Assembly: GCA_040882555.1 (NCBI GenBank) | Contig: JBBEBC010000153.1 | Span: forward strand, 1-58,524 | Direction of reading: 5' to 3' | DNA from: Bacteroidia bacterium | GTDB lineage: Bacteria; Bacteroidota; Bacteroidia; M30B66 | DNA length: 58,524 nt | Part shown: positions 17,509 through 58,524 of the stretch, piece after piece | Position numbering within the stretch: the first letter of the stretch is position 1 | Layout of the letters: every line of letters starts with the position of its first letter | Program-made: the position numbers and the translations under genes | Notes under the pieces: model-generated | The model's database searches: none | Seen by the model: the letters and a program-made list of their open reading frames with translations, nothing else | What the model was told of the DNA's origin: nothing

Positions 17509-17891
17509 GATGGGATAAGTTTTTAGATAAGTTTGAAAACTTATTTTGCAAAACAGTTGCAACGATCCCACCGAAATACATTTCCATGAAACATGTCGAA
17601 ATATCAAAAGAGCTTGTTTTCTCTGATATTTCTGTTTGACAAGAGGAAAAGCGATAGTAGGTGTGTTGCATTCAGTATTGCATTATTAGTTTCGTTCACA
17701 CTTGTACCTTAATAGGTTAAAAGTGTTCACAAAATCTAAGCTTACCAGTTACATGTAAAATGGAGAAAAATTTCCTTGGGAATTTGACAGGAAATCACGT
17801 GTAGTTCTTGAATACAAAGAAAAACACCAAAAAGGAATTAGAAAATTTAATGCGGAATTGTGTAAAAACTTACACGATAAGTTGATGGTGC

Positions 17892-42615: not shown

Positions 42616-45150
42616 ATGGCAGAAGGAGAGAAAATAATTCCGATTAACATCGAAGAAGAAATGAAAACGGCCTATATCGACTATTCGATGTCGGTCATTG
42701 TGTCACGCGCACTACCAGATGTGCGTGATGGATTGAAGCCTGTACATCGTCGTGTTCTCTTTGGGATGCAGGACTTGGGAGTAGCTTCTAATCGGGCGCA
42801 CAAAAAATCTGCAAGAATTGTAGGTGAGGTACTTGGTAAATATCACCCACACGGAGATACATCAGTATATGATGCCATGGTTCGTATGGCTCAGGAGTGG
42901 AGTTTAAGGTATCCACTTGTTGATGGCCAGGGTAATTTTGGTTCTATCGATGGAGATAGTCCAGCAGCAATGCGTTACACGGAGGCACGTCTTAAGCGTT
43001 TGGCTGAAGAGATGCTCGCTGATATAGACAAGAATACGGTCGATTTCAGGTTGAATTTTGATGATTCTCTCGAAGAGCCGACTGTTTTACCTGCAAAAAT
43101 TCCAAATTTACTTGTAAACGGAGCTTCAGGAATTGCTGTAGGTATGGCTACCAATATGCCTCCTCACCAGTTAGGGGAAGTAATTGATGGTACTGTTGCT
43201 TACATTGAAAACAATGAAATCACCATAGCCGAGCTCATGAAATTTGTGAAAGCTCCTGATTTCCCTACCGGGGGAATTATTTATGGTTATGAAGGAGTTA
43301 GGGATGCTTTTGAAACTGGGCGTGGTCGTGTAGTAATGAGAGCAAAGACTTTTGTTGAGCAAACAGACAATGGACGAGAGCGAATTATAGTGTCTGAGAT
43401 ACCTTATATGGTAAATAAGGCTGAGATGATTCGTAAAACGGCAGATCTTATTAATGATAAGAAGCTAGAAGGAATTAGTGATATCCGTGATGAGAGTGAC
43501 CGCGACGGAATGCGGATTGTATATGAATTAAAAAGAGATACAATCACCAATGTGGTGCTTAATAATTTATTTAAGTACACCCAGCTACAGTCCTCATTTT
43601 CAGTAAATAACATAGCATTAGTAAAAGGCCGTCCTGAGATGTTAAATCTCAAGGATATGATTCGCCACTTCGTAAATCACCGTCACGAAGTTCTTGTTAG
43701 AAAGACTCAATTCGAGCTTGAACAAGCTGAAAAAAGAGCTCATATCCTTGAAGGTTTCTTAATTGCCCTTGATAATCTTGATGCAATTATCACCTTGATT
43801 AGGGCTAGTAGAACTCCTGATGATGCGAGAGAAGGTTTGATGGAAACCTTTGAATTGTCTGAAATACAGGCTAGAGCCATTCTAAACCTAACGCTTCAAA
43901 GGTTAACAGGCCTTGAGCGAGATAAGATTAGAGACGAGTATGATGAGTTAATGAAGACCATCGATTACTTGAAATCTATTCTTAATGATGAAATTCTTCG
44001 AATGAAGATCATTAAAGATGAGCTCATTGAGATAAAAGAAAAATACAATGATGAGCGCCGCACGGAGATTATCTATGCAGCTGAAGGAGAGCGCATTGAA
44101 GATTTTATTGCAGATGAACCTTGCGTAATTACTGTATCTCATCTTGGTTACATCAAACGAACCAATCTGAATGAATACAGGACTCAAAGAAGAGGTGGAA
44201 CTGGTTCAAAAGGTTCTAATACAAGAGATGAAGATTTCTTAGAACATTTATTTACGGCAACAACGCATAACTATTTGCTATTCTTTACCAAGCTTGGTAG
44301 ATGTTTCTGGATGAGAGCGTTTGAAGTACCTGAAGGAACAAAGACATCGAAAGGAAGAGCAATTCAAAACTTGATTAGCATTCCGCCAGATGATAAAGTA
44401 GTGGCATATGTGAATGTGACTAGTCTAAGCGATGAAGAGTACATCAATAACAACTACATTATCATGTGTACTAATCGTGGAACGATTAAGAAGACAGCTC
44501 TTGAAGCTTATTCTCGTCCACGTGTGAATGGTATCAATGCAATTACTGTTAGAGAAGGTGAAGAACTATTAGCGGCAACAATGACTAGTGGAACATCTGA
44601 AATCATGATGGCCTTAAAAAGCGGAAGGGCAATTCGTTTCCCTGAAGCCAAAGTGAGACCAATGGGCAGGAATGCTGCAGGTGTGCGTGGTGTGACTTTA
44701 GCAAACGATGATGATGAAGTTGTTGGTCTGGTTTGTGCGGAGGACACCAATACACAGATTATGGTTGTTTCTGAAAACGGATATGGTAAGCGCTCTGATA
44801 TAGATGATTACCGTATTACCAACCGTGGCGGAAAAGGTGTTAAAACCATTAATGTTACTGATAAGACCGGTTCTCTAATTGCCTTGTTAGCGGTAAAAGA
44901 TGAGGAGGATTTGATGATTATCACCCGTTCAGGTGTGATGATTAGAATTCCAATTGAAGGTTTACGTGTAATGGGCAGAAATACTCAAGGTGTTCGTCTT
45001 ATAACATTAAGAAACAATCAAAGCATTGCCGCTGTGACCAATGTTGAGAAGGAAGAAGAAGAGGAAGAAATTCCTGGAATCGAGGGTGGAGAAGGAGCAG
45101 AAGGTGCTGAAGGAGAAAACAACGCAACTGAAAACCCAAGTGAAGAATAA
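42616..45150 (+). CDS. gyrA: DNA gyrase subunit A
   Basis: [24 protein letters not shown], catalytic AAMRYTE, GyrA-box QRRGGTG and acidic tail. Confidence 0.97.
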
Positions 45151-45166
45151 TTTAAACTGAATAACT

Positions 45167-46327
45167 ATGAACCGTATTTTTCTGATACTTCTAATTCTCG
45201 GAATTGCCGGTCCCTCGATGGCTCAGCAAAGTAAAGTAGTTAGTGCCTATAACTATCTAAATTACTATCTGCAGGACAAAGATGTAGAACAATTAAAAAA
45301 AGCCAAGGAAAACATTGACCAGGCTATTGAAAACGATAAAACTATGGGGAAACCCAAAACGTGGTATTATCGTGGAAATGTTTATTGGGCAATGCAGGAT
45401 AGTAAAAATGAAGAGTTTACTTCAGGAGGTCAAAACCCCTTACTAACAGCAATCGAATCATACAAGAAGGTTTACGAGTTAGAACCATCTTATGAATATG
45501 CTGATGAATCTTACCAAAAAGCCTTGATTGGATACAAGAATCTAGGTATTATGGCTTTCAATGAGAACAATTTCAATAATGCATTGAAGTATTTTGAAGG
45601 AGCTTATGATTTGGGGTTGAAGAAGAATGTTCTAGATACAGCTGCGCTGGAAAATTCTTCAATTGCTGCTATAAGAGCAAATGATTATGATAAAGCTGAG
45701 AAATATCTCAAGCAATTAATCAGCTATAAGATAGATGAGGATGGTAATAGGTACATCCAGCTTATTACTATGCAAAAAGCAAAAGGTGATACTGCTGTGG
45801 CTATGAAAACGCTTGCAGAAGCTAGAGCTGAATTTCCCAACGATCAGAAGTTGCTGACTGAGGAGTTAAATTACTACTTGATGCAAGGAAAATCCGCTGA
45901 GGCTGAGAAATTGTTAGTTCTTGCTATTGAGAAAGACCCAGGAAATCATTTACTGCACTATGCAGCGGGTACCATTTATGAGGATCTAGGTAAAAGAGAG
46001 CCTGCCATTGCGGCATACAAAAAAGCTATAGAACTAAAACCAGAGTTTTGGGAGGCATACTTTAACCTTGGAGCGCTCTACAACAATGAGGCTAAGCGTT
46101 TGCAGGATATTGCAAACAATGAAAAGGACATGAAGAAATATGAAGCTGGCAATAAGCTGGCGGAAGCTGAATTTGATAAAGCATTGCCAAATCTTGAAAA
46201 AGCCTTAGAATTGGCTCCAGCAGAAAGTTCTGATGTACAGGCTTTACTTAGAACATTGAAGCAGATTTACAGCCGACTCAATATGAAAGATAAATACGAG
46301 AAGGTTAGCAAAATGATGGAGCCTTGA
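45167..46327 (+). CDS. Exported TPR-repeat protein
   Basis: Signal peptide (SMAQ); multiple TPRs such as AYKKAIELKPEFWEAYFNLGALY. Confidence 0.88.
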   Translation: MNRIFLILLILGIAGPSMAQQSKVVSAYNYLNYYLQDKDVEQLKKAKENIDQAIENDKTMGKPKTWYYRGNVYWAMQDSKNEEFTSGGQNPLLTAIESYKKVYELEPSYEYADESYQKALIGYKNLGIMAFNENNFNNALKYFEGAYDLGLKKNVLDTAALENSSIAAIRANDYDKAEKYLKQLISYKIDEDGNRYIQLITMQKAKGDTAVAMKTLAEARAEFPNDQKLLTEELNYYLMQGKSAEAEKLLVLAIEKDPGNHLLHYAAGTIYEDLGKREPAIAAYKKAIELKPEFWEAYFNLGALYNNEAKRLQDIANNEKDMKKYEAGNKLAEAEFDKALPNLEKALELAPAESSDVQALLRTLKQIYSRLNMKDKYEKVSKMMEP

Positions 46328-46379
46328 TATAGGCTTTAAGAAAAGAAGTCGGTAGAGGTTAGGTTCTAGTTTGACTGTT

Positions 46380-46410
46380 AATCCCGAAAGTTTCTTTCGG
46401 GATTTTTTTT
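46380..46410 (+). terminator. Intrinsic terminator after gyrA-TPR
   Basis: AATCCCGAAAG-ttt-CTTTCGGGATT followed by a T-run. Confidence 0.9.
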
Positions 46411-46574
46411 GCATTTGGAATTCCTGAATTGATCAACGTAAGACTTCAAAGGCAATTTCTATGGTGATAAAACTATCAAGCAATCATTTGCAGAATTATA
46501 GGAAAGAGGAAGGCGAGTTGCTTAATTAGGCAATGTATATAATTGAATATGTGCATCCTAGACTTAAAATATCT

Positions 46575-46602
46575 ATTTAACATAATATTAATTATAAAAC
46601 AA
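46575..46602 (-). other. dif: XerCD dif-like recombination site
   Basis: Minus strand TTGTTTTATAA-TTAATA-TTATGTTAAAT. The right arm matches the E. coli XerD arm, the spacer is 6 bp, the left arm keeps the inner ATAA, and the site is intergenic. Confidence 0.7.
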
Positions 46603-46947
46603 ATGGAAGGTTGTTAACATGAAATCAGAAATTAATCCGTTTGATGGTTCACCTCTAATTTGAAAATATCAAAAGATGGATTGATTATATGTAAACATAA
46701 GTTTAGCGATAAGAATCCCAAGGATGACATTTCAGCACGAAAGTTCTAAGATTTCAAAAATTTACCGAAGAGCTTTTAATGAATTCCTTGAAGGAATGAA
46801 TTGTAGAAAAAACTTTGCAGCTCAGATTTAAAAGCATGACAATAAAGAATCAATCTAGAATAACTTGTTTATGCCTTCAAGAATTTAATCGGAACATTTG
46901 AATCATTTGGTAAAACTGTTAAACTTAGAACCAATTAAAAATAGCGT

Positions 46948-48345
46948 TTACAGTAAATGAGCATTCATTCTATCTTTTATGCCCTTACGCTTATATGTGC
47001 GGCTAGCCCAGATGTAAAAGCATAAACCAATCAATAGCCAAGCTATTATTATTGACCATTCTATTGTGTTTAGCGCAGAAGGATTTCCAGGTAAATACAA
47101 ATACAGCAGGCCTAAACTTGATAAGAAAGCCAAAATGCCGATAATTTTGCCAAAGGGCACTTTAAAAGGACGCTTCATTAGGGGCTCCTTTTTCCTCAAT
47201 TGGTAAAAAGAAAGAGCTACTAAACTCCATGAAATGACTATTCCTAATCCCCCGGCATTTACTAACCAGCCCATCGCTTCTTTGCCAAAAAGCGTTGCTA
47301 GTATTGAAGTTCCTGTTACAAATAGTATGGCTGTAGTTGGTGATTTATATGTTGGATGCAGAATCGAGAATGATTTAGGCAGCATTCCTGAATATCCCAT
47401 GGCATAGATTGCCCTCGTGGCTCCTACAAAAAAGCTATTCCAACTTGTAATAATACCAGCTAAACCAGCCAAAATAAGTAAGTTTTTAGCCCAGAGTCCT
47501 GAATAGATTTTCTGCATTGCATCCGCTGGAGCTAATGAACTAGATTCTAATTCACTCGCAGTAAGCGTGTTGCCTACGCTATAGATGATAGCTGTATACC
47601 ACAAAATAGCTAATATAACCGACAAGATTAATACCCTGCCAATTTGCCTGAAAGGTAAATTGATTTCTTCTGCTGCTTGAGGAATCACGTCAAAGCCCAC
47701 GAACATAAAGGGTGTCATAACAATTACTGCAAGTAGACCTGTTGATAATTCGTCTTTACCCAAAATCTCAAATGATTCGCCTTGCATATTAGGAGAGACA
47801 AGACTACCGAAAATCAACATGAGTCCAGCCACTAGGATGAAAAGTGTTAAGACTGTTTGAATAAATGCAGCTGATTTTACTCCGAAAAAATTAATTATTC
47901 CTATGATTAAAGCTCCAAATACACCTACCAATACCCAGTCTAAATAAATAGGATTACCTAAGAGAGACCAAATTGGTTCTTCCTGCGAAAGAGGTAAAAT
48001 ATTACTAAGCACAACTGGTAATGCAACAGCCTCAAAAGCGCAAACAGATACATAACCGAGGATGATAAACCATGTGCAGAAAAAAGAAGCATCGAGCCCT
48101 AATCCTCGATAACTGAAAACATGCTCCCCTCCTACTTTTGGCATAGCCGAAGTGAGTTCTGCGTAGGTAAGGCCAACAAGCGCTACAATGAATCCACCAA
48201 TAAAGAAAGCCGTAATTGCACCAAGAACGCCAGCTTTTAGAATCCATTCACTTGTAAGAACAACCCAAGCCCATCCAATCATCGCCCCAAAGGATAGAGT
48301 GAAAATATCCCATTTGCCTAAAACACGGTTAAAGTTTGAACTCAT
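46948..48345 (-). CDS. APC-superfamily amino acid/polyamine permease
   Basis: GAMIGWAW in TM1, YAELTSAMPKVGGE, FVGFDVIPQAAEE, RPFKVP; about 12 TM segments. Confidence 0.9.
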   Translation of the reverse strand: MSSNFNRVLGKWDIFTLSFGAMIGWAWVVLTSEWILKAGVLGAITAFFIGGFIVALVGLTYAELTSAMPKVGGEHVFSYRGLGLDASFFCTWFIILGYVSVCAFEAVALPVVLSNILPLSQEEPIWSLLGNPIYLDWVLVGVFGALIIGIINFFGVKSAAFIQTVLTLFILVAGLMLIFGSLVSPNMQGESFEILGKDELSTGLLAVIVMTPFMFVGFDVIPQAAEEINLPFRQIGRVLILSVILAILWYTAIIYSVGNTLTASELESSSLAPADAMQKIYSGLWAKNLLILAGLAGIITSWNSFFVGATRAIYAMGYSGMLPKSFSILHPTYKSPTTAILFVTGTSILATLFGKEAMGWLVNAGGLGIVISWSLVALSFYQLRKKEPLMKRPFKVPFGKIIGILAFLSSLGLLYLYLPGNPSALNTIEWSIIIAWLLIGLCFYIWASRTYKRKGIKDRMNAHLL

Positions 48346-49697
48346 TTTACATAGACCGTTTTTCTATTGATGAATTCCATTATTCCATCTTTAGAAAGTT
48401 CTCGACCATATCCGGAGTTTTTAGTGCCACCAAAAGGTAATCTTGGATCTGATTTAACAAGTTCATTTATGAAATAAGCTCCATCGCTTACGCGCGAAGC
48501 CATTTCCAATGCTCTATCAGTATTGGTTGTGCATATTGTTACACCCAGACCATAGTTTGAGTTTTCTGATAGTTCAAAGGCATCGTCTATGTCTTTTGCT
48601 TTGATCATTGCTGCTAGCGGACCAAATGTTTCTTCATCAAATGCAGGCATGCCTGGTTTCACATTACCTAAAATGGTAGGTTCGTGATAAGCTCCATCCT
48701 GCTTGCCACCAAGCAGTAACTCAGCTCCCATTTCTATTGACTTTCTAACCTGCTCTTGCAGTTGATCTGCAAGGTCTTTCCTAGCCAAAACTCCGATGTC
48801 AGTAGCATCGTTCATAGTGTCTCCAGATTTTAAATCTTTAACGGCTGAAGTGAATTTAGAAACGAACTCATCGTAAGTATTACCAACCAAAATAAACCGC
48901 TTTGCCGCAATGCAACTTTGGCCGCAGTTTAGCATTCGGGCAGTAACAGCAGTTTTAACAGCTTTATCGATATCAGCATCTTCCCAAACTATAAAGGCAT
49001 TGCTACCGCCTAGTTCCATGAGAGATTTCTTAAGGTACTTTCCTGCCAATGAGGCTACTGCTGAACCAGCTTTTTCACTTCCTGTTAGCGTTACAGCTTT
49101 AACTGCTGGATGAGATATGATAGATTCTGACTGGTCGTGATGAATAATGAAATTCTGGAAAACTCCTTCAGGAAAACCTGCTTTGGTAAAAATGCTTTCA
49201 ATAAGCTGTGCGCTTCCGAAAACATTGGCAGCATGTTTTAAAACACAAGTATTTCCTGCCATTAATGTTGGGGCTGCAAATCTAAAAACCTGCCAGAACG
49301 GAAAATTCCAAGGCATAATTGCAAACACACAGCCTATAGGATCATGCTTTACGAAACTCTTTTGAGCATCTGTTTCTATAATTTCATCTTTTAAGAAGTG
49401 AGCTGCATTTTCAGCATAATACTCACACACCCAAGCACATTTAATAACTTCAGAACGCGATTCTTTAATGGCTTTACCCATTTCTAAAGTAATCATCTGT
49501 GCATATTCATCCACATGATCTCTCAATATTTGGGCTGCTTTGAGCATAAGCTGAGCACGCTCCTCAATTGGAACATTTCTCCAGCTTGAAAATGCTTTGT
49601 GTGCTTTATCTAACTTCTGCTCAGTTTCTTCTTTTGTGAGGGAAGTGTATTTTCCTACAACCTCATTGTTGTAGGGATTGATATTTGTGAATTCCAT
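48342..49697 (-). CDS. NAD(P)-dependent succinate-semialdehyde dehydrogenase (Sad/GabD1-like)
   Basis: [31 protein letters not shown], catalytic [29 protein letters not shown]. Confidence 0.88.
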
Positions 49698-49816
49698 TTA
49701 TGATGTTTAATACTTAATATTCAAGACATTAGCCAGCCTTTCTTAATCAATTTAATCAAGGCAAATTCATTCAAGTGCATTACTGCAAATGTTTATTCAA
49801 AAAATGGTATTATTTC

Positions 49817-51403
49817 CTACTTGGTTAAACTTCCTATTAGTTCAGGATGTGCTCTTTTATCCTCAATTAATTGAGAAGCATACTGAGCACGAATGGCCGC
49901 AATCCAATTTTTAGCTCTTTGAGTCAAATTGAAATCTTTGGTCATCATTCTGCCTCTTGCAACTATAATTCCTAAATCGGCACCGTCATATAGGTAATCT
50001 CCTTTCTTAGTAATTCTTAAGAAGAATGCTTCGCTCTCGCTTTCTACCGCCCTTCTATGCGTGTCCATTCTATTGAATTGAATGTGGCCATTATCAAACA
50101 TTTGCCAGATACCTGAATCAGGCGCAGCCGTTACATACTCGATGGTGTCTTCTGTATGCTTAACGATTAGCTGACTCCAAGTGTCAATATTTTCTTGTTT
50201 AAACCAGCGTTCGTTCATGGCTTTCACATCAAGTTCATAATCTACATTCATCCACTCAAGTATATGAAATAGATATAATGGTGCATCAGCTAAAGCAAAT
50301 ACAGCATGGTTTGTTATTGAGCTTGCTCCAGTTACTCTTGGGTTCAATTCACCTAAATACATTTCGCCATTATCTTGATCAATCAAAAAATCAAGCTCGA
50401 AATAACCTTTGTATCCTTCTTTTCTGAGTTGTTCACCGAATTTCTGAGTATACTCCAAAGCATTTTCGCGTAATTGGGGAGTAAATGCATCAGGGAAAAT
50501 TTCATTCCCACACCATCCACCTTTATAAGGTGTAAGTTCTTTAAAACCAACAAGCTCTGTCATTAGCGGAGCCACAATTGTTCCGTGACGCGTTACACAA
50601 GCTTCAATAGCAGAACCTCTACAATTAATTCGCTTCATGACTTTCACCTCCTCCTCCTGCTCTATCTCATCGGCGTATTTCTTGTATTCTTCATTATTTG
50701 AAATGAAAAAAGTCGTGTGACCTGAATCTCCGAATGGGGTTTGAATGACAAGGTCTTTACCTAATTTCTTTGACACCTGGCATAAATGCTCATAGCTCTT
50801 TACTCTCGTCAGCACGTTAGGAACGCATGGAACGCCCGCTTTCTGAGCAATTCTATTTGTATTAACCTTATTGTCTAGGAAGGTTCTCATCTTAGCAGAT
50901 GGAAAAATAACTTCTAATCCAAGCTTTTGGGCTAATTTTTCAGTTTTAGCATCAAACATTAGGAATAGAATTTTTCCGGCTTTACCTCCCTTTTTTCTAG
51001 AATTAATATAAGCTTGAACCTCAGGATGTTGTAGTAAATAATTATTAATATCCTCTATACTTTCGAATTCATCATGAGGCATTTCTTTTTTAGGTGAGAA
51101 AACGTTTGGATGTAAACCTCCAAAGCATTCGATATTGCAAATGAATTTAAATCCTTTAATCCATTCGTCAGCACCCAAAAGATTGAAATTGGTGGCACTC
51201 ATAAAATAAATGGGAGTCTCATTCTTATAAAAGAACCTTCTAATATCAGAAACATCATTTAAGATAGACTTATCATTTATTTGCTTTTTAGCTGATGAAG
51301 TAGGACGTTTTGCAATTGCTTTTTTGGAAGCAGCAGCTTTTTTAACCACTGCTTTTTTAACTATTGCTGTCTTTGTATTCGGTGTACTTATTTTTTCGCT
51401 CAT
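49817..51403 (-). CDS. ATP-grasp ligase of unknown substrate, with a basic N-terminal tail
   Basis: LDNKVNTNRIAQKAGVP, glycine loop QTPFGDSGHTTF, GYFELDFLID, and GELNPRVTG (ExNPR). Confidence 0.8.
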   Translation of the reverse strand: MSEKISTPNTKTAIVKKAVVKKAAASKKAIAKRPTSSAKKQINDKSILNDVSDIRRFFYKNETPIYFMSATNFNLLGADEWIKGFKFICNIECFGGLHPNVFSPKKEMPHDEFESIEDINNYLLQHPEVQAYINSRKKGGKAGKILFLMFDAKTEKLAQKLGLEVIFPSAKMRTFLDNKVNTNRIAQKAGVPCVPNVLTRVKSYEHLCQVSKKLGKDLVIQTPFGDSGHTTFFISNNEEYKKYADEIEQEEEVKVMKRINCRGSAIEACVTRHGTIVAPLMTELVGFKELTPYKGGWCGNEIFPDAFTPQLRENALEYTQKFGEQLRKEGYKGYFELDFLIDQDNGEMYLGELNPRVTGASSITNHAVFALADAPLYLFHILEWMNVDYELDVKAMNERWFKQENIDTWSQLIVKHTEDTIEYVTAAPDSGIWQMFDNGHIQFNRMDTHRRAVESESEAFFLRITKKGDYLYDGADLGIIVARGRMMTKDFNLTQRAKNWIAAIRAQYASQLIEDKRAHPELIGSLTK

Positions 51404-51410
51404 AATTTTT

Positions 51411-54176
51411 TCAGTTTTCTAATTCGATTTTTTTCTTTTTATGTGTTGCCATAGACATACCTCCCATAGCGGTTGCCGTTTTTTGTCTGTTTAGCAGACT
51501 TTCTTTAAATACTCTTAATCCAAGATCTGCACGATATCCGTGAATTTCAGTAACATCTAGCGCAAGCATAAAACGAATAATCTCTTTGCTTACAACTTGT
51601 CCTGGTACAAGAACAGGGAATCCAGGTGGATATGGGATTACAAAAGACGAAGCCACTAATTCCCTACCTTTTTCAATGGCTTCCAAACATGACTTTATAT
51701 GAATGTATTCACAATTGTCTTCTTTATATGCTAGAAAGAATGCTTCTCTTAAATTGCCTCCTGGAACTCCCGGAACTGCTAGAAAAGACGCATTAAATCG
51801 GCTAAAATCAGGAAGAGGTGGCACATCCTCAGTCATTGACTTAATGCGAAGACGAGCTATTTCACTTTCGCGCTTATTTAAAGAATCAGAGTCTTCATCA
51901 AGCTGCTTAGCAATTTTTAGTAATACCTTGGTTAGATAGGCAACACTTCCCCGGGTTGTGCCAATGTTAGTCATAAAGAGCACTGTATTTCGGGAAGTCT
52001 TGTTTATTTGGATATTGTATTGATCCATTAGGTACTTGTTCTTAAAAGTATCTCCATCAATTCCAGTTCTACCAATAAACAAGGTGATTTTGGTTGGGTC
52101 CAGCATAAATTCATCATTTTCCCAAGCATCCTCCATCCTATTCCAGCCTTTTTCTGGGTTGTAATATTCCTTTAGTCCGCTTTGTCGGAATTTATCAGGG
52201 ATAAAATCTTTTAAAGTAAGCACATCGAAATACTTACTGAGTTTTGGGTTATCGCTCACTTTGGCTCTTAAAACCATAGCTAGTTCAACACTTTTTTCGA
52301 CCATATCATACCCTTCAAACTGAGTTTGTCTTCTGCCTACATCAAGTGAAGCGAGCATTTGATAATTTGGAGATGTGGAAGTATGCGTCATATAAGACTC
52401 AAGAAAAGTACTTTCAGATTTTTTACTAAAATCTTCATCCCAAATGTGAATCATTGAACCTTGCCTAAAACTGCTAAGAGTTTTGTGGGTACTTTGAGTA
52501 GCGTAAACTCTCAAACGCACTAGATCTGGATCAGGAAGAGATGGCTCCTCACCTGCTTTTAGATTTTTTACATGGTGAATATATTCCTCGCGATAGGCTT
52601 TAGTCTGATATTTTCTATGAAGTTTATCAGCACTGAACATGCCTGTTCTTTGCTTATAATTATAGGTGAAACCTGCAAATGCGAACCATGCCTCATCCCA
52701 AAGAAATATCATATCTGGCTTTATGGCAAGCACTCTTTCCATGACTCTTTGAACATTGTAAACCAATCCATCAAAAGTGCAATTGGTTAAAAGAAGCATT
52801 TTAACATTATCTAATCTCCCGGCACTTTTTAGCTGTAATAGTTTCGTCAGAATATGCTCTAAAGGAACTGCTCCATACATAGAATACTTTTCAATTGGGT
52901 AGGAATCAAGGTAAACGGGATAAGCTCCAGAAAGAACCAATCCATAATGATGGGATTTATGACAATCTCTATCAATCATAACTAAATCGCCCGGTTCCAC
53001 TAGCGCTTGGAGCACTATTTTATTTGCAGTGGAAGTTCCATTAGTAACAAAAAATGTGTATTGCGCCCCATAGGCAGCGGCTGCCATTTCCTGAGCTTTT
53101 TTAAGAGGGCCAGTTGGCTGTAATAAGGAGTCCATCCCACCTGTGGTGGCAGAGGTTTCGGCAAGAAACATATTACGACCATAAAAATCGCCGAAGTCCT
53201 TTATCCAACGTGATTTAAAGACAGAGTTTCCTCTTGAAATTGGCATTGCATGAAAAATGCCTGTGGGTTTTTGGCTATATTCTTTTAATGCTGTAAAGAA
53301 TGGCGTTTGGTATCTTTCACGAATCCCCCGGATGATAGCTAAATGCAATTCCTGAAGGTCTTCTTTTCTGTAATAAATTCTTCGAAATAAATTTAGAGTA
53401 CTATCCTTTAAATCAGTGAGAGCTGTATCGGTTACATAATAAACATCAAGTTCAGGTCTGAACCGCTTAATTAATTCACCTAGTTTAGGTCCTAAGTCAG
53501 ATTCAGGAATTGAATCTAAATCGATTTTTAATACATTTTGAATGTAAGGCTTAATTAATTCAGTGATGTGAGTGGATCGATAAGGCGGGGCATAACGAAC
53601 AACAATAGCCTGAATGTTATGATTAAAGAATAAGGCAATTAAAGCATCTTGAAATGAATGCTGCACGGTAATTTTATAACTAAATTCCTCCTGAGGATCA
53701 TGTAATTCTTTAATTTTTGACTGCAGAGAAACTTCATCAACATGAGTCAAATCATCAAGAAACAACACTTCGAAATATTTCTTTTTTGAATTTGAGAATT
53801 GTCCTGACTGCTCATCAATATCTAAATTATCGGCATCTTCATCCACAGAGGATAACGTATCGCCCTGGTATTCATCGCTAACGAGCTGTCGGGTTAGACT
53901 AGCAACTTTATTTGAAAGAGCTTTATGTTCTTTTCTAGCTAAGGATTTACCTAGCTTTTCAATCACCTCTTTACCTGGTACAGCAAAATACCTTTCAACA
54001 TTTAATAGGTTTTTAAGTAATTCCTCCGCTTTTTTAATGCGTTTAGATTCTTCTGCGGAGCCAGCTTGGGCTTGAGAGAGCTCAACACATTCATTTTTTA
54101 ATGAATTCCAATGGTTCAACCTGAGTTGACCAATGCTATAATATGGTGCACTTACATGTTTCTTTTTATCAGACAT
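51411..54176 (-). CDS. Large Orn/Lys/Arg-decarboxylase-family (fold type I PLP) enzyme of unknown substrate
   Basis: FFVTNGTSTANK, DRDCHKSHH, LTNCTFDG, WDEAWF, PLP-lysine motif TQSTHKTL, TSTSPNY, PYPPGFPVL. Confidence 0.88.
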   Translation of the reverse strand: MSDKKKHVSAPYYSIGQLRLNHWNSLKNECVELSQAQAGSAEESKRIKKAEELLKNLLNVERYFAVPGKEVIEKLGKSLARKEHKALSNKVASLTRQLVSDEYQGDTLSSVDEDADNLDIDEQSGQFSNSKKKYFEVLFLDDLTHVDEVSLQSKIKELHDPQEEFSYKITVQHSFQDALIALFFNHNIQAIVVRYAPPYRSTHITELIKPYIQNVLKIDLDSIPESDLGPKLGELIKRFRPELDVYYVTDTALTDLKDSTLNLFRRIYYRKEDLQELHLAIIRGIRERYQTPFFTALKEYSQKPTGIFHAMPISRGNSVFKSRWIKDFGDFYGRNMFLAETSATTGGMDSLLQPTGPLKKAQEMAAAAYGAQYTFFVTNGTSTANKIVLQALVEPGDLVMIDRDCHKSHHYGLVLSGAYPVYLDSYPIEKYSMYGAVPLEHILTKLLQLKSAGRLDNVKMLLLTNCTFDGLVYNVQRVMERVLAIKPDMIFLWDEAWFAFAGFTYNYKQRTGMFSADKLHRKYQTKAYREEYIHHVKNLKAGEEPSLPDPDLVRLRVYATQSTHKTLSSFRQGSMIHIWDEDFSKKSESTFLESYMTHTSTSPNYQMLASLDVGRRQTQFEGYDMVEKSVELAMVLRAKVSDNPKLSKYFDVLTLKDFIPDKFRQSGLKEYYNPEKGWNRMEDAWENDEFMLDPTKITLFIGRTGIDGDTFKNKYLMDQYNIQINKTSRNTVLFMTNIGTTRGSVAYLTKVLLKIAKQLDEDSDSLNKRESEIARLRIKSMTEDVPPLPDFSRFNASFLAVPGVPGGNLREAFFLAYKEDNCEYIHIKSCLEAIEKGRELVASSFVIPYPPGFPVLVPGQVVSKEIIRFMLALDVTEIHGYRADLGLRVFKESLLNRQKTATAMGGMSMATHKKKKIELEN

Positions 54177-54179
54177 TAA

Positions 54180-54581
54180 TTAGTTTTTTGAGTGTAAAGC
54201 AAGACGATTTCCTTCCGAGTCAATGAACAAAGCAAAATAGCCCTCATCCTCATTAATGAGGGTTTTGGACAATACGACTCTCCCGCCTGCATCCTCTATT
54301 CTATTTAACACAGGGCTTAAATCTTTACCACTATTTAAGTAAATAAGCGGACCTACTTCGCTAGGAACACACCCTTCACCGGCAACAACAGCTCCTCCAA
54401 TACCATTTTCTGCAGGAAAAAATGCCATTGCATAGGATGGAGTTTCAGAAGTTTGCATTTCAAATGCATATATATGATTGTAGAAAGCGACTGCACGTTG
54501 AAAATTCAAAGCAGGAATTTCAAACCAATTGATGAAATGTTTCATTTTTTTAGTAGTTTTCTTTACCGAAGTAGATCCCAT
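54180..54581 (-). CDS. VOC/glyoxalase-family protein
   Basis: INWFEIPA..FQRAVAFY, GIGGAVV, GYFALFIDSEGNRLALHS. Confidence 0.88.
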   Translation of the reverse strand: MGSTSVKKTTKKMKHFINWFEIPALNFQRAVAFYNHIYAFEMQTSETPSYAMAFFPAENGIGGAVVAGEGCVPSEVGPLIYLNSGKDLSPVLNRIEDAGGRVVLSKTLINEDEGYFALFIDSEGNRLALHSKN

Positions 54582-54597
54582 ATTTTATTTTTTTTTA

Positions 54598-55539
54598 TTA
54601 ATAAGTTTCATTTAAGCCTTTGTTGGCGAGAGAGTGTTCTCCTAAATGAACTATATCACTTTCTTTCAATTTTAATTCTGAAAGTTTGCTGAGTTTTGTA
54701 GGCTTTATTAAAGGTCCGAGTGAATCGAGATAAGGATGTTTTACACCTTTCTGATAAATAGTAAAATCACCCAAATGATCTCTGAAACTTTTTAGTGGTT
54801 GTCCTAAACGTAGCACTCCTAATTCTCGACTTCGCTTTACACGCTCAATATCAAGTTCAATTGGAAATATTTCCTCTGTACTACCAGATTGATAAAGTAC
54901 TCTTCCATCGGGCCCGCAAACAATAGAGCAGCCGCTACCGCCTGTATCTAAACCATTCACATCGAACAGAAAACACTGATTAACAGTTGACATTGCTCTA
55001 GCAATAGCTAATTCAATATCACGATCTATTGTGCCTGTCATAGTTGGATGCAGAATTACTTCAGCACCCATAACAGCTAAGGTTCTAATAGTTTCAGGGA
55101 ACCACATGTCGTAGCAAATTGATACGCCAAAGCGGCCGACTTCCGGTACATCAAAAACACAGTATTGATCACCTGGCGTAACTCCTACTTCATAGGGATA
55201 AAATGGAAACATTTTGCTGTACCTCTGTATGACTTCTCCGTCAGGATTTATTACTGAAGCAGTATTATAAATCTTATCTGCACGCCTTTCAAAAATAGAA
55301 CCTGGCAGCAACCAGATACCATACTTTTTAGCCATTGCTTGCATCTCCTGTTCGAAAAAACCTGGAATCTCCTGAGCAGTATGCGACAATGGACCATAAG
55401 CGCATAGTTCGCTAAACACTACCATTTCTATCCAAGGATAAAGATTCATTGTAATATCTAACTTCAGCTTCATCATTTCTACATTTGAATAGGTCGCTGA
55501 CACCTTCATTTGAATTCCTGCAATTGAGAATGGTTTCAT
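54598..55539 (-). CDS. Carbon-nitrogen hydrolase (nitrilase/amidase superfamily)
   Basis: E-K-C triad in VVFSEL, YSKMFP and SICYDMWFPE; also YNTASVI and GAEVILHP. Confidence 0.9.
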   Translation of the reverse strand: MKPFSIAGIQMKVSATYSNVEMMKLKLDITMNLYPWIEMVVFSELCAYGPLSHTAQEIPGFFEQEMQAMAKKYGIWLLPGSIFERRADKIYNTASVINPDGEVIQRYSKMFPFYPYEVGVTPGDQYCVFDVPEVGRFGVSICYDMWFPETIRTLAVMGAEVILHPTMTGTIDRDIELAIARAMSTVNQCFLFDVNGLDTGGSGCSIVCGPDGRVLYQSGSTEEIFPIELDIERVKRSRELGVLRLGQPLKSFRDHLGDFTIYQKGVKHPYLDSLGPLIKPTKLSKLSELKLKESDIVHLGEHSLANKGLNETY

Positions 55540-56855
55540 TTATTTTGAGTTGAGTTTTTTAAAATTTCTTCTTCAAGAATGTCTAATCCGGCCTTTAACT
55601 GTTTATCGGTTATCACCAGGGGACATAAAATTCTGATCACATTTTTATTTGTTCCAGCACTAAGTATTATCAAGCCTTTGGCTGCACAGCTTTTTACAAT
55701 TGCCGAACATATTTCGCCATTAGGCTCTATTGGACTATTGTTTTTTACAAATTCAATTGCATTCATTGCCCCTATTCCACGAACATCTCCAATGTCTGCG
55801 CATTTTTCCTTAAGAACATTTAATCTCTTCATGATAATATCACCCACATCTAAAGCTCTTTGATTTAGATTGATGTCTTTCATATATTGAATTGTTGCTA
55901 AAGCAGCAACACAACTTAGCGGACTTCCGATATAGGTTCCTCCAATTGTTCCAGGTTCAGCCGCATCCATAACATCGGCTTTTCCAACAACCGCAGCAAT
56001 AGGTAAACCTGAGCCCATTGATTTTGCATACGTACTAATGTCAGGAGTTACTCCGTAATTTTGCCAACTGGCCCAATTGCCAGTGCGAGCAAATCCACTT
56101 TGAACTTCGTCGAAAATCAAAATAATTCCATGCTCATCACAGAACTCTCTAAGCCCTTCTAAATATTTTTGAGGCACAGGATTAAATCCTCCTTCTCCTT
56201 GTATTGGTTCAATAATAATTGCTGCAATTGTTCCCGGATCGACTAAGCTCTTTCCGCTAGATTTTAAATCTCTTAATTTCCATTTAACAAACTCTTCCAT
56301 GCTTTTTCCATCACTATATCTATAGTAATTTGGAAATCGAAGTCTGTAAACTTCCGGTGCAAACGGTCCGCAATTAATCTTATAATTTATTTTACTTGTC
56401 AGAGTCATTGCCATTAAAGTTCTACCATGGTATGCATCAGTAAAACAAAGAACAGCATGTCTTTTGGTAGCTTGTCGAGCTATTTTAATGGCATTTTCAA
56501 CAGCCTCAGCTCCAGTGCTCACAAGCATCACTTTGGTTTTATCTCCGTGAGGTAAAATCTCGGCAAGCTCTTCACATAATTTGATGTAAGGCTCATAAGT
56601 AACTACGTTAAAACTAGTATGCAGGTATTTACCTGCTTGCTCACGAATAGCATCTACAACAGGTTCTGGACAATGTCCAGCATTTGTAACCCCGATGCCT
56701 CCAGCAAAATCAATTAGCTCATTTCCATCTAAATCTGTAATAATTGCTCCCTTGGCAGAACTAACTGTAGCGGTATTAAAAACGCCAACTCCATTGGCAA
56801 CTATTTTTTTTCTTCTCTCAAGAAGAGTTTGAGATTTGGTGAGTGTTTCTGTCAT
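55536..56855 (-). CDS. gabT: 4-aminobutyrate aminotransferase-like class III aminotransferase
   Basis: IDFAGGIGV.NAGH, STGAEAVENAIKIAR, YHGRT, EPIQGEGG, DEVQSGFARTG, AKSMGSG, GGTYIGSP. Confidence 0.85.
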   Translation of the reverse strand: MTETLTKSQTLLERRKKIVANGVGVFNTATVSSAKGAIITDLDGNELIDFAGGIGVTNAGHCPEPVVDAIREQAGKYLHTSFNVVTYEPYIKLCEELAEILPHGDKTKVMLVSTGAEAVENAIKIARQATKRHAVLCFTDAYHGRTLMAMTLTSKINYKINCGPFAPEVYRLRFPNYYRYSDGKSMEEFVKWKLRDLKSSGKSLVDPGTIAAIIIEPIQGEGGFNPVPQKYLEGLREFCDEHGIILIFDEVQSGFARTGNWASWQNYGVTPDISTYAKSMGSGLPIAAVVGKADVMDAAEPGTIGGTYIGSPLSCVAALATIQYMKDINLNQRALDVGDIIMKRLNVLKEKCADIGDVRGIGAMNAIEFVKNNSPIEPNGEICSAIVKSCAAKGLIILSAGTNKNVIRILCPLVITDKQLKAGLDILEEEILKNSTQNK

Positions 56856-57110
56856 TTATTATTAAATAATTAAGTACAATACAAAGTCATACAATGAGCA
56901 AGAGTGATTTAATAATTCTCTTAATTCAATGATTTGCTAAACGAAATAGCTCTTAGCAGAGGATGAAAATTCAAAGGATAAAATCCCTATTTAATATTAA
57001 AAAAATGCAAAATATTTTTGCTAAATTCTAAGAATATTCACCTTCGATTAACCCACAAAGGGTTATAATTTATATATTTTTCTTTATTGAATAAAAAAGA
57101 AAACATATCC

Positions 57111-57136
57111 TTGATTATTAAAGGTATAATAATCAA
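57111..57136. promoter_or_regulatory. Perfect 10-6-10 inverted repeat upstream of the gabT operon (candidate operator)
   Basis: TTGATTATTA-aaggta-TAATAATCAA. Confidence 0.4.
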
Positions 57137-57498
57137 ACTTCATATCATTTGCTGTGCTGACAATATAGTTATAATTTATCAATAATTGCATTAAATTGGA
57201 TTTTTAATTATTCCAATCTGTAATTACCTTCATTATATCATATAAAAAGATACACTAGAATTGAGATTAATTCTTGCTCAGAATTAGGCGCCCTTTATGT
57301 CTCTAATTATCCTCTTTCGTAATTAGATTTAATGGTCAAAATGTGGGTTGTAGTGAAAAATGTTTTACAAACACCGCGGGACAGAATTTAAGTGGGATTT
57401 TTAATTGATTATTTAGATCAACTCTTTTTTTCATAGCAGAAGAAATGATGATTGTGCTGGATCATATCTCTATTAAGTTGATACGAAGTTGATTTATA

Positions 57499-58524
57499 CT
57501 ATTCTTGAATTATTCCCAAAGCTACGGTACGATTGCTGGTCTCATCAATTAAAATGAAGGCGTTTGATTGTGTTGTTGAGTTTTTAAAAACCTTTTGAGG
57601 AAGAGAACTTTTTATGGAGCAAGTTGATTTTGAGTTCATTGAAATAGCTGTTGCACCGTTAAAATTCTCGATTCTAACCTTACTTCTTTGTAAACCTCGC
57701 TGCATAATATAGGGTTTTCGTGATTGTATCTCAAGCGTATCTAGATTGTAAATCAAGGCCTCGAAATTGTTCGAATCAAATTGATTTTCAAGGTATTGTT
57801 CGCATAAAATACTGCCTCTCGATAAATCAACCTGAGAATCTATTTCAAGACTTGCAGCTTCTCCTTTTTTTACTGAATCAACTGCTTCTCCGAACTTATA
57901 AAGTTGTTTCACCCTAATTTTTCCAGGAAGCTCAGGAACAAAGACCAATTCATTAACTTTTAAAACCCCAGAATAAATTACTAAGTGATATCTTCTTGAA
58001 TCATTCCCTAAATGCACGGCTTGCTGCACTTGAGCATAAAAGCCCTCGTCTTCTTCAACAGTCTCAAGGCGTTCTATCCAATCTAAAACCGAAAGTTTGA
58101 GCTCGGGAAATAAATCTTCGTTAATATTCACCAGATTAATTCCTTCCACAGCGGAAGCAGGAATAAAACTTATTTTGCCTTTAAAATTATTCTGCACCAA
58201 TTCTCGAATTTCAGCTTCCCTCCTATTAATCAAGACTTTATCATATCCAATGGAATCAATCTTATTAATAACAACCAAAATATCAGGTATTTGCAGAGTT
58301 TGAAGAATGTCGAAATGCCTTTCAAATTGAGCTGTTAGCGGTCGGGAAATATCAGTCAAAATCATTGCTGCTGAAGAATTACTCGCAGCCGTAACCATGT
58401 TTCTTGTGTATTGCTCATGTCCTGGAGAATCTGCCCAAATGATTCGCTTTGCCTTGTGAGTCATATATATATGAGCAACATCAATGGTAATTCCCTGCTC
58501 ACGCTCTGCAATTAACCCGTCGGT
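57499..58524 (-). CDS. cysN: Sulfate adenylyltransferase subunit 1, 5'-truncated by the window edge
   Basis: The frame is open to the window end: TDGLIAEREQGITIDVAH, ADSPGHEQYTRNMVTAAS, NKID, FILIDETSNRTVALG. Confidence 0.82.
   Translation of the reverse strand, partial: TDGLIAEREQGITIDVAHIYMTHKAKRIIWADSPGHEQYTRNMVTAASNSSAAMILTDISRPLTAQFERHFDILQTLQIPDILVVINKIDSIGYDKVLINRREAEIRELVQNNFKGKISFIPASAVEGINLVNINEDLFPELKLSVLDWIERLETVEEDEGFYAQVQQAVHLGNDSRRYHLVIYSGVLKVNELVFVPELPGKIRVKQLYKFGEAVDSVKKGEAASLEIDSQVDLSRGSILCEQYLENQFDSNNFEALIYNLDTLEIQSRKPYIMQRGLQRSKVRIENFNGATAISMNSKSTCSIKSSLPQKVFKNSTTQSNAFILIDETSNRTVALGIIQE

Follow-up and report, generated by a model that had tools for sequence, protein, structure and literature searches.

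The window analyzed here is a stretch of 58,524 base pairs (bp) that makes up the whole of contig JBBEBC010000153.1 in a Bacteroidia bacterium assembly (GCA_040882555.1; 3.24 Mb in 173 contigs, 91.8% complete). Within it, seven minus-strand open reading frames (ORFs) that all run in one direction span positions 46948-56855, and we predict, with a probability of roughly 0.6, that they form one operon that handles 4-aminobutyrate (GABA). The arrangement itself is far beyond chance, as the identical gene order is found in dozens of other species.

In the pathway that we propose, a long-form pyridoxal phosphate (PLP) decarboxylase would very probably convert L-glutamate to GABA, as judged from its likeness to the Mycobacterium tuberculosis enzyme Rv2531c and from the glutamate-site residues that it retains. 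With slightly more assurance still, a GabT-like aminotransferase and a succinic semialdehyde dehydrogenase (SSADH)-like enzyme would take GABA to succinate by the established shunt. An ATP-grasp ligase would, on balance, activate the carboxylate of GABA with ATP via an acyl phosphate and join it to an acceptor, with GABA as the acyl substrate. These three steps, decarboxylation, shunt and ligation, are proposed because the proteins are homologous to characterized enzymes and because their gene order is conserved. Two further steps are drawn from gene context and are put forward more tentatively. The acceptor may be something other than trehalose, perhaps an amine, which would give a GABA amide product, and a CN-hydrolase may cleave this conjugate or its oxidized succinyl form to return GABA or succinate, a task that could be shared in related organisms by a hydrolase of the C45 family. 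A permease would move glutamate, GABA or the conjugate. The net outcome would be a reservoir or buffer of GABA attached to the shunt.

The activities of the individual components have been known since 2026 from M. tuberculosis, where Rv2531c converts L-glutamate to GABA and is inactive on lysine, ornithine and arginine (main text of PMC13506015), and where Rv1722 (GabtS) is described as an ATP-grasp GABA-trehalose synthetase with an ester product (main text of bioRxiv 10.64898/2026.04.15.718621). The initial annotation had called the window cluster a candidate undescribed pathway. This description no longer applies to the key enzymes, which were published singly in 2026; the linked operon was found in none of the literature searched. 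In M. tuberculosis the two genes lie apart, judging by locus number, whereas in the window the decarboxylase gene lies 7 bp from the ligase gene. The operon is thus independent genomic evidence that the two enzyme families share one pathway, since outside mycobacteria more than 60 species of several phyla encode them 7 bp apart, accompanied by GabT, one or two amidases and an aldehyde dehydrogenase. The searched texts of the Rv2531c, Rv1722 and structure papers (PMC13506015, bioRxiv 10.64898/2026.04.15.718621 and PMC12329521) refer neither to the respective other gene nor to any operon or gene neighborhood. What appears to be new is therefore the linkage of the families, their association with a VOC protein and with two families of amidases, the spread beyond mycobacteria and a likely change of acceptor; no description of these was found in the main texts searched, and the supplements, including the network data of PMC13506015, could bear on novelty.

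Identity of the operon proteins

In transcription order the operon opens with the GabT-like class III aminotransferase (439 amino acids [aa]; 55536-56855), whose stop codon overlaps the next start by 4 bp, and continues with a nitrilase-superfamily CN-hydrolase that is a predicted amidase (313 aa; 54598-55539), a small VOC/glyoxalase-fold protein (133 aa as listed; 54180-54581), the long-form Rv2531c-type PLP decarboxylase that is a predicted L-glutamate decarboxylase (921 aa; 51411-54176) and the ATP-grasp ligase (528 aa; 49817-51403). The SSADH-like aldehyde dehydrogenase (451 aa; 48342-49697) follows 119 bp past the ligase gene, and an APC-family amino acid permease (465 aa; 46948-48345) is the last gene, with a start that overlaps the SSADH stop by 4 bp. 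The junctions calculated from the ORF coordinates (-4, 16, 3, 7, 119 and -4 bp) match exactly those of the initial annotation, and its family assignments were borne out by Pfam, by NCBIfam and, for the VOC protein, by protein atlas clusters. It had also stated that the operon encodes no glutamine-synthetase-like, class I amidotransferase, GadB-type, agmatinase or deiminase family, and indeed none of the seven proteins matched any of these in Pfam or NCBIfam.

The decarboxylase matches Pfam OKR_DC_1 (E 6e-78) and aligns with the 947-aa "probable amino acid decarboxylase" of PDB entries 9n0n, 9n0o and 9n0p (E 1.9e-242), which the main text of PMC13506015 identifies as Rv2531c. The likeness to Rv2531c that the initial annotation had proposed is thereby confirmed. 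Residues 13-901 align with residues 20-907 of 9n0n, an extent that takes in all four domains including the extra N-terminal one, and the two proteins fall into the same four-domain length class (921 versus 947 aa). The PLP lysine, K565 in the motif S-T-H-K, aligns with K570 of Rv2531c. In the main text of PMC13506015, glutamate recognition and PLP handling are attributed to H405, K406, R576, T606, R718 and N731, with R576 placed by its authors at the gamma-carboxylate. Five of these six glutamate-site residues are identical in the window protein, where H406, K407, R571, T601 and N725 correspond to H405, K406, R576, T606 and N731; the sixth, R718, is replaced by K712, a conservative change that keeps the charge.

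As described in the same main text (PMC13506015), Rv2531c supplies most of the GABA that enters the GABA shunt of M. tuberculosis, requires Mg2+, is cooperative and hysteretic, and has a K0.5 of ~0.5 M glutamate; its substrates were tested by nuclear magnetic resonance (NMR) with lysine, ornithine, arginine and glutamate, and "other amino acids" are mentioned without data. The position of the window decarboxylase gene alongside those for GabT and SSADH fits this published role. The Rv2531c network cluster reported there contains Flavobacterium and Salegentibacter sequences (PMC13506015, main text), and three Salegentibacter loci in our collection (L009, L014 and L018) bear the operon. The model for canonical glutamate decarboxylase (TIGR01788) was passed at its cut-off in none of five operon-bearing genomes, that of the window included, so that the long-form decarboxylase is the only evident source of GABA in those genomes.

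The ligase matches Pfam CPSase_L_D2 and scores 795.6 bits against NF005096 (PRK06524, named "biotin carboxylase"), for which the cut-off is 684. The same cut-off is exceeded by homologues of Mycobacterium barrassiae (737.6 bits) and M. aquaticum (744.0 bits), and the protein listed as "biotin carboxylase [Mycobacterium barrassiae]" is 44% identical to the window ligase over nearly its whole length (E 4e-165). The comparison was made with these other Mycobacterium homologues; Rv1722 is presumed to be a member of NF005096 from its "(biotin) carboxylase" label and from the ligase-hydrolase order of the mycobacterial-type loci described below. Indirectly, then, the shared NCBIfam equivalog, the 44% identity to Mycobacterium homologues and synteny judged by locus number point to a ligase of the Rv1722/GabtS kind. 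The two are alike in being ATP-grasp proteins of similar size, in carrying the same misleading "(biotin) carboxylase" label and in having a GABA-producing gene context. Across 32 diverse relatives, K179, Q221, E352, N354 and R356 do not vary, and by analogy these residues presumably serve the nucleotide and Mg2+ sites.

An AlphaFold2 model of the ligase has a predicted local distance difference test (pLDDT) score of 90.4, with residues 1-42 below 50. Residues 1-45 (51269-51403) form a Lys/Ala-rich disordered tail, and the Mycobacterium homologue has a similar one. As many relatives begin ~40 residues later, the start of the ligase may be annotated too early. The nearest folds to the model are biotin carboxylase and PurK (template modeling [TM] score ~0.55, 12-16% identity), and every fold match listed is either PurK or an ATP-grasp carboxylase, so the fold search returned only generic biotin carboxylase and PurK matches that give no clue to the acceptor. 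Relatives of the ligase number 6194 at E<=1e-10 among 7999 scored, and the named close homologues among the matches listed are nearly all from Bacteroidota. A few relatives match Pfam PF07382. Thousands of database entries named "biotin carboxylase" or "Orn/Lys/Arg decarboxylase" are probably misnamed.

The two predicted shunt enzymes were assigned from family models. The aminotransferase matches Pfam Aminotran_3 (E 7e-119), and its best NCBIfam models are all 4-aminobutyrate-2-oxoglutarate transaminases, each scoring under its cut-off (TIGR00700, 479.3 versus 506.65). The top 13 of 19 PDB sequences matched are all GABA aminotransferases (E. coli GabT 1sf2, E 9.5e-108), and the best matches include PuuE-type aminotransferases. 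The window protein keeps residues equivalent to R141, E211, K268 and R398 of E. coli GabT, which we take to include the PLP lysine and the arginines that bind the GABA carboxylate and 2-oxoglutarate. The aldehyde dehydrogenase matches Pfam Aldedh (E 5.6e-136), with NADP-dependent succinic semialdehyde dehydrogenase as its best NCBIfam model (514 bits versus a cut-off of 730). In the GABA shunt, GabT and SSADH together take 4-aminobutyrate to succinate. The permease matches Pfam AA_permease_2 (E 4e-35) and scores 183 bits, under the cut-off, with TIGR00909; no GadC-type model is among the 11 NCBIfam families listed for it. It is not a core member of the operon, as only 6 of 54 related loci have a homologue, which there usually separates the decarboxylase gene from that of the ligase.

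The small protein has no significant Pfam match (Glyoxalase, E 0.062), and its assignment comes from the protein atlas, where it attains a feature score of 0.98 and a structural TM score of 0.98 to VOC/glyoxalase clusters with a model pLDDT of 0.93. The atlas entry begins at residue 13, so the protein probably starts at M13 and is 121 aa long, in which case the 16-bp junction widens to ~52 bp. One genome of the phylum sample described below (G404; locus L166, 7976-11079) carries a VOC-decarboxylase pair without the ligase, gabT or CN-hydrolase genes nearby, from which it appears that the VOC and decarboxylase genes form a module of their own.

Conservation of the operon and a second ligase clade

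Stretches encoding a relative of the ligase were found in at least 586 species, with one genome taken per species, and the best 80 of these, in which the ligase is 60-82% identical to that of the window, were analyzed as loci. Counts are of same-strand tblastn matches to the seven window proteins and one C45 protein, and cover only loci with enough flanking DNA. The decarboxylase gene lies upstream of the ligase on the same strand in 67 of the 68 loci with at least 3 kb of upstream sequence (L072 is the exception). The CN-hydrolase gene is present in 51/62 loci, gabT in 47/62 and the VOC gene in 41/67, while a C45/AAT gene is found downstream of the ligase in 50/61. An SSADH orthologue of at least 50% identity occurs downstream in 18/57 loci, and ORF clustering places an aldehyde dehydrogenase of some subfamily downstream of the ligase in 41/80. 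Unbiased ORF clustering of the 80 loci returned these eight families again, and no further same-strand family exceeded 10 loci; the cluster thus shows no evident enzyme of its own that would make an acceptor.

An even sample of 401 genomes from the phylum gave a similar picture. The ligase was detected in eight genomes and the decarboxylase in nine, with the two genes adjacent in all eight; the ninth is the genome with the lone VOC-decarboxylase pair. The eight ligase-bearing genomes span 8 genera, and kin among them are not independent. Together with the 67/68 linkage and the 51/62 frequency of the CN-hydrolase, this strongly confirms an earlier expectation that other genomes, too, would have the genes for decarboxylase, ligase and amidase together.

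The operon is patchily distributed. Among 31 genomes the ligase was detected in one, that of the window, and it is absent from two other genomes of the same genus (98% and 73% complete). Most of the loci are labeled Bacteroidota, and others carry the labels Balneolaceae, Ignavibacteriae, Anaerolineales, Trueperaceae, Gemmatimonadales, Planctomycetota, alphaproteobacteria and gammaproteobacteria; these are labels of metagenome-assembled genomes, in which binning errors are possible. This rarity and patchiness, along with high identity across phyla, point to horizontal spread of the operon under strong constraint. Its base composition (G+C content [GC] of 0.378, versus 0.371 for the whole window) shows no sign of recent arrival. 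Judged by record titles, non-pathogenic and cultivable genera that bear the operon, and so could serve as hosts for its study, include Salegentibacter, Psychroflexus, Brumimicrobium, Aequorivita, Flavobacterium and Taibaiella. This breadth differs from the account in the main text of the Rv1722 preprint, which describes homologues mainly in slow-growing mycobacteria (bioRxiv 10.64898/2026.04.15.718621), whereas relatives are present here in at least 586 species genomes of several phyla.

A second clade of ligases, of mycobacterial type, was examined in 80 metagenome loci, the best 80 of 270 confirmed relatives of the M. barrassiae protein. These ligases are 42-49% identical to that of the window, and their gene neighborhoods are different. 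Among the 58 loci that extend at least 3 kb to one side of the ligase, 3 have the long-form decarboxylase nearby, versus 67/68 in the clade of the window. The CN-hydrolase and VOC genes are each found in 0/80 mycobacterial-type loci (versus 51/62 and 41/67), and C45 in 5/80 (versus 50/61). Conversely, a beta-lactamase-family serine hydrolase occurs in 57/80 mycobacterial-type loci by tblastn versus 0/80 in the window's clade (loci L086-L165; for example, L122, 7409-8839). ORF clustering places this hydrolase directly after the ligase in 61/80 loci, and by tblastn it is the immediate downstream neighbor in 34 of the 54 loci whose sequence reaches far enough past the ligase. Thus, the ligases of the window's clade are linked to a decarboxylase, a CN-hydrolase and C45, and those of mycobacterial type to a beta-lactamase-family serine hydrolase. 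Each clade has its own hydrolase class beside the ligase: amidase families in the one (a CN-hydrolase and/or C45 gene in 47 of 50 well-flanked loci) and an esterase-like family in the other, where the known product is an ester.

The order of ligase and hydrolase in the mycobacterial-type loci matches, by locus number, that of Rv1722 and Rv1723, the latter described in the main text of bioRxiv 10.1101/2025.02.25.640225 as an uncharacterized beta-lactamase-like SXXK enzyme. The route by which GABA-trehalose is broken down is stated to be unknown in the main text of bioRxiv 10.64898/2026.04.15.718621, and on the strength of its gene context the beta-lactamase-like hydrolase is a candidate for this step. 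The operons described here name candidates for that breakdown step, and they suggest that the acceptor varies by lineage.

Genes that make or use GABA are also found beside the mycobacterial-type ligases. Agmatinase is encoded in 18/80 loci (TIGR01230, over cut-off), aminobutyraldehyde dehydrogenase in 13/80 (NF010000, over cut-off), gabT in 5/80, and an unassigned group II PLP decarboxylase in 5/80 by tblastn and in 20 loci by clustering; examples of these GABA-linked genes are at L154 (4981-6078), L164 (249-2051) and L143 (15767-17200). This suggests that in some of these loci GABA is derived from putrescine rather than from glutamate, and it follows that the ligase family keeps the company of GABA enzymes in both clades. 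Six loci (L138, L143, L144, L145, L146 and L157) contain tandem ATP-grasp duplicates ~1.3 kb apart, each 45-48% identical to the ligase of the window.

Possible fate of the proposed GABA conjugate and competing readings

The CN-hydrolase matches Pfam CN_hydrolase (E 1.2e-29) and reaches no NCBIfam equivalog (best aguB, 82.7 versus 410). Its nearest structures are 6mg6, Nit2 (2w1v) and PH0642 (E ~1e-20), and the catalytic residues of these three proteins have their counterparts in E44, K109, C142 and E149. The C45 "AAT" genes encode autoproteolytic hydrolases/acyltransferases, and one or two of them lie between the ligase and aldehyde dehydrogenase genes in 50/61 related loci (for example, L004, 11630-12823 and 12845-14014; L009, 11586-12836; L002, 11055-12035). 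The C45 identity was assigned by Pfam in 5 of the 6 intervening ORFs scanned (of 15 listed), together with NF040521. The window has a 119-bp spacer at this place (49698-49816), and no C45 gene was found in its genome. Across 50 well-flanked loci, 37 have both CN-hydrolase and C45, 6 have the CN-hydrolase alone as in the window, 4 have C45 alone and 3 have neither. In the same loci gabT and the CN-hydrolase gene are both present in 40, with the CN-hydrolase only in 3, gabT only in 0 and neither in 7.

Several known systems provide points of comparison for a cycle in which GABA is conjugated and released. In the Puu pathway of E. coli, the glutamine-synthetase-like PuuA gamma-glutamylates putrescine and the amidotransferase-like PuuD performs the release, with PuuE, GabT and an aldehyde dehydrogenase also taking part. 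There, as proposed here, amine oxidation is framed by a ligase that uses ATP and by a hydrolase, in a route ending in GABA and then succinate. However, the window operon contains neither of those ligase and hydrolase families, and its predicted entry substrate is glutamate, by decarboxylation, rather than putrescine. The Gad system of acid resistance combines the group II decarboxylases GadA/GadB with the antiporter GadC and resembles the operon in that conversion of glutamate to GABA is encoded beside an APC-superfamily transporter. It differs in that the window decarboxylase is of an unrelated fold type, the permease has no GadC-type match, and GABA would be catabolized within the operon rather than merely exported. 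Precedents for the proposed chemistry come from animals. The ATP-grasp enzyme carnosine/homocarnosine synthase couples histidine with beta-alanine or GABA, and Tan, a C45 hydrolase of Drosophila, cleaves beta-alanyl amines. Compared by description, these are examples of an omega-amino acid amide made by an ATP-grasp enzyme and undone by a C45 enzyme, the same family pair that flanks the decarboxylase in most related operons, although the window itself has no C45.

A number of points weigh against our reading. The link to Rv1722 runs through the NCBIfam model, other Mycobacterium proteins and locus-number synteny, and the sole characterized relative of the ligase makes an ester and not an amide. 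The two ligase clades are only 42-49% identical, so that the acyl as well as the acceptor substrate may differ, and the decarboxylase is near the mycobacterial-type ligase in only 3/58 loci. The 80 loci are the closest relatives of the window and are not mutually independent. GabT and SSADH both fall below their NCBIfam equivalog cut-offs. The inseparability of gabT and the CN-hydrolase gene fits a transaminase with an omega-amidase equally well, and the 3 of 50 well-flanked loci that have ligase and decarboxylase with neither hydrolase indicate that a hydrolase is not obligatory. Moreover, a synthetase and a hydrolase of its product encoded in one transcript constitute a futile cycle unless they are regulated post-transcriptionally. 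Lastly, the trehalose genes OtsA, TreS and TreY were looked for in five operon-bearing genomes in a search that excluded TreT, TreP and uptake, and in which the window genome is 91.8% complete; OtsA was found in one genome, not that of the window, and the cut-offs for TreS and TreY were passed in none.

Among the alternatives, the main rival for the role of the hydrolase, though itself unlikely, is that the CN-hydrolase is an omega-amidase-type partner of GabT that acts on an amide 2-oxo acid or on succinamate, with the ligase product passing to C45 or accumulating. The 4-bp overlap of the gabT and CN-hydrolase genes, and the absence of gabT without the hydrolase in the 50 well-flanked loci, speak for such a partnership. 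Nit2 and yeast Nit3, both presumably omega-amidases, are also among the best PDB matches, and C45 stands directly after the ligase in 50/61 loci. However, Nit2 is matched only weakly (E 1.9e-20), other branches of the superfamily match at least as well, and in the window genome, which has no C45, this scheme leaves the ligase product without a hydrolase.

We consider it quite improbable that the product of the ligase is the ester 6'-GABA-trehalose, as in M. tuberculosis, with the CN-hydrolase unconnected to it. That the window and Mycobacterium proteins pass the same equivalog, that the sole biochemistry known for the family is GABA plus trehalose and that one of the five genomes has OtsA are all consistent with it. 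Against this, OtsA was not found in four of the five genomes, the window's among them, TreS and TreY were passed in 0/5, the ligases are only 42-49% identical, and the serine hydrolase present in 57/80 mycobacterial-type loci is replaced by amidases in the window's clade (0/80). The acceptor is thus probably not the trehalose of GABA-trehalose.

Marginally more improbable is an anabolic cluster in which the ATP-grasp enzyme, joined in relatives by C45 as an acyltransferase, would build GABA into a solute or small peptide as the end product, with GabT and SSADH trimming excess GABA. Peptide-like solutes and natural products are frequent products of ATP-grasp enzymes. The C45 enzymes include acyltransferases (Pfam AAT; NF040521, "acyltransferase/hydrolase"), and the K0.5 of ~0.5 M for Rv2531c fits activation at very high glutamate. 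No conserved exporter, tailoring or regulatory gene accompanies the operon, however, and its two conserved hydrolase families point to turnover.

The initial annotation had offered two models. Its first, with glutamine or glutamate decarboxylated and the ligase making a GABA conjugate, survives in its glutamate form, which matches the mycobacterial biochemistry published in 2026. Its glutamine form, in which the decarboxylase makes 4-aminobutyramide and the CN-hydrolase deamidates it before or after transamination and oxidation, is very unlikely. Nit2-like enzymes do hydrolyze terminal amides. The reported NMR tests of Rv2531c covered lysine, ornithine, arginine and glutamate (PMC13506015, main text). 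Yet the arginine for the gamma-carboxylate is kept (R571), as is the arginine of GabT for a free carboxylate, and this route gives the ATP-grasp enzyme no role. The second model, in which a diamine made from lysine, ornithine or arginine is acylated, oxidized and released in Puu style, fares worse still. The Pfam and NCBIfam family names are those of Orn/Lys/Arg decarboxylases, and some mycobacterial-type loci have agmatinase and aminobutyraldehyde dehydrogenase, but the KOR decarboxylase models of NCBIfam are far under cut-off for the window protein (best 212.7 versus 968), and Rv2531c has no activity on these amino acids. Moreover, the glutamate arginine of the decarboxylase and the carboxylate arginine of GabT are retained, agmatinase and aminobutyraldehyde dehydrogenase are found in 0/80 loci of the window's clade, and the operon has no glutamine-synthetase-like or amidotransferase-like gene. 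A biotin carboxylase, as the NCBIfam product and source names and the nearest solved folds would have it, is scarcely credible given 12-16% identity, a TM score of ~0.55, a sequence E of 1e-7 at best, accC and pyruvate carboxylase model scores of 28-36 bits against cut-offs of at least 597, a characterized relative that is a ligase, and no biotin carrier or carboxyltransferase gene in the operon or its conserved neighbors, to which the search was confined within the genome.

The preferred reading, a GABA conjugate made by the ligase and reopened by a hydrolase, can be extended to the family as a whole, albeit speculatively. NF005096 ligases might be widespread GABA-parking enzymes, each with its own release enzyme. 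The window ligase would then make a GABA amide on a common amine, the CN-hydrolase and C45 would be the missing catabolic half, the serine hydrolase would be the missing GABA-trehalose esterase, and the M. tuberculosis genes would derive from one such operon in an ancestor of the slow growers.

Flanking DNA and other features of the window

The operon lies between two AT-rich gaps, for which the initial estimate of about 620-640 bp proved accurate. The upstream gap (56856-57498; minus strand, 643 bp, GC 0.258) is presumed to be the promoter and regulatory region; its ORFs are only 32-35 aa, and it has no Rfam match. The downstream gap (46328-46947; 620 bp, GC 0.302) holds the terminator of a plus-strand gyrA and TPR gene pair, which is convergent with the operon and ends in a strong hairpin (plus strand, 46380-46404; 11 pairs followed by a T run). 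This gap also holds a short conserved element. The element is a 38-nt AT-rich sequence (~46565-46602) located after the TPR gene that is 95% identical in a genome of the same genus (G001); a genome of the same family (G003) shares 30 nt of it at 97% identity. The DNA surrounding the element is not conserved, and the element has no Rfam match. The small ORFs of both gaps contained nothing notable, and the sole Rfam match in 45000-58524, to a microRNA and below threshold (E 0.083), is taken as chance. A sigma-70 promoter scan, which is unsuited to the host phylum, returned 28 sites versus a mean of 37.8 in shuffled sequence and located no promoter for the operon. Terminator-like sites numbered 20 versus 7.8 in shuffles, with no convincing site on the minus strand within the operon.

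The gyrA-TPR pair is kept in G001 at 80% DNA identity. On the other side of the operon is a CysN-like GTPase gene (57499-58524, minus strand) that is truncated by the end of the contig. The 12 kb of G001 that follow the TPR gene contain no counterpart of this gene, from which it follows that synteny breaks on that side of the operon. Borders of a possible insertion could therefore not be drawn, and the GC of the operon is like that of the window.

A sequencing run that shares a few sequence words with the window is labeled as a salt-lake metagenome, which we regard as no more than a lead toward the solute reading; no RNA run is listed for the operon. Elsewhere in the window, a 3572-aa ORF (6889-17607, minus strand) has a C-terminal Por_Secre_tail sorting domain and no other Pfam match at E<=1e-5, and a 732-aa fibronectin/Ig-repeat protein (20604-22802, minus strand) ends in the same domain, which is typical of Bacteroidota and, together with the named close homologues of the ligase, points to a host of that phylum. 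In a 985-aa protein (29645-32602, minus strand) a glycoside hydrolase family 3 domain is fused to one of the beta-lactamase family; its gene is ~17 kb away and has no relation to the operon.

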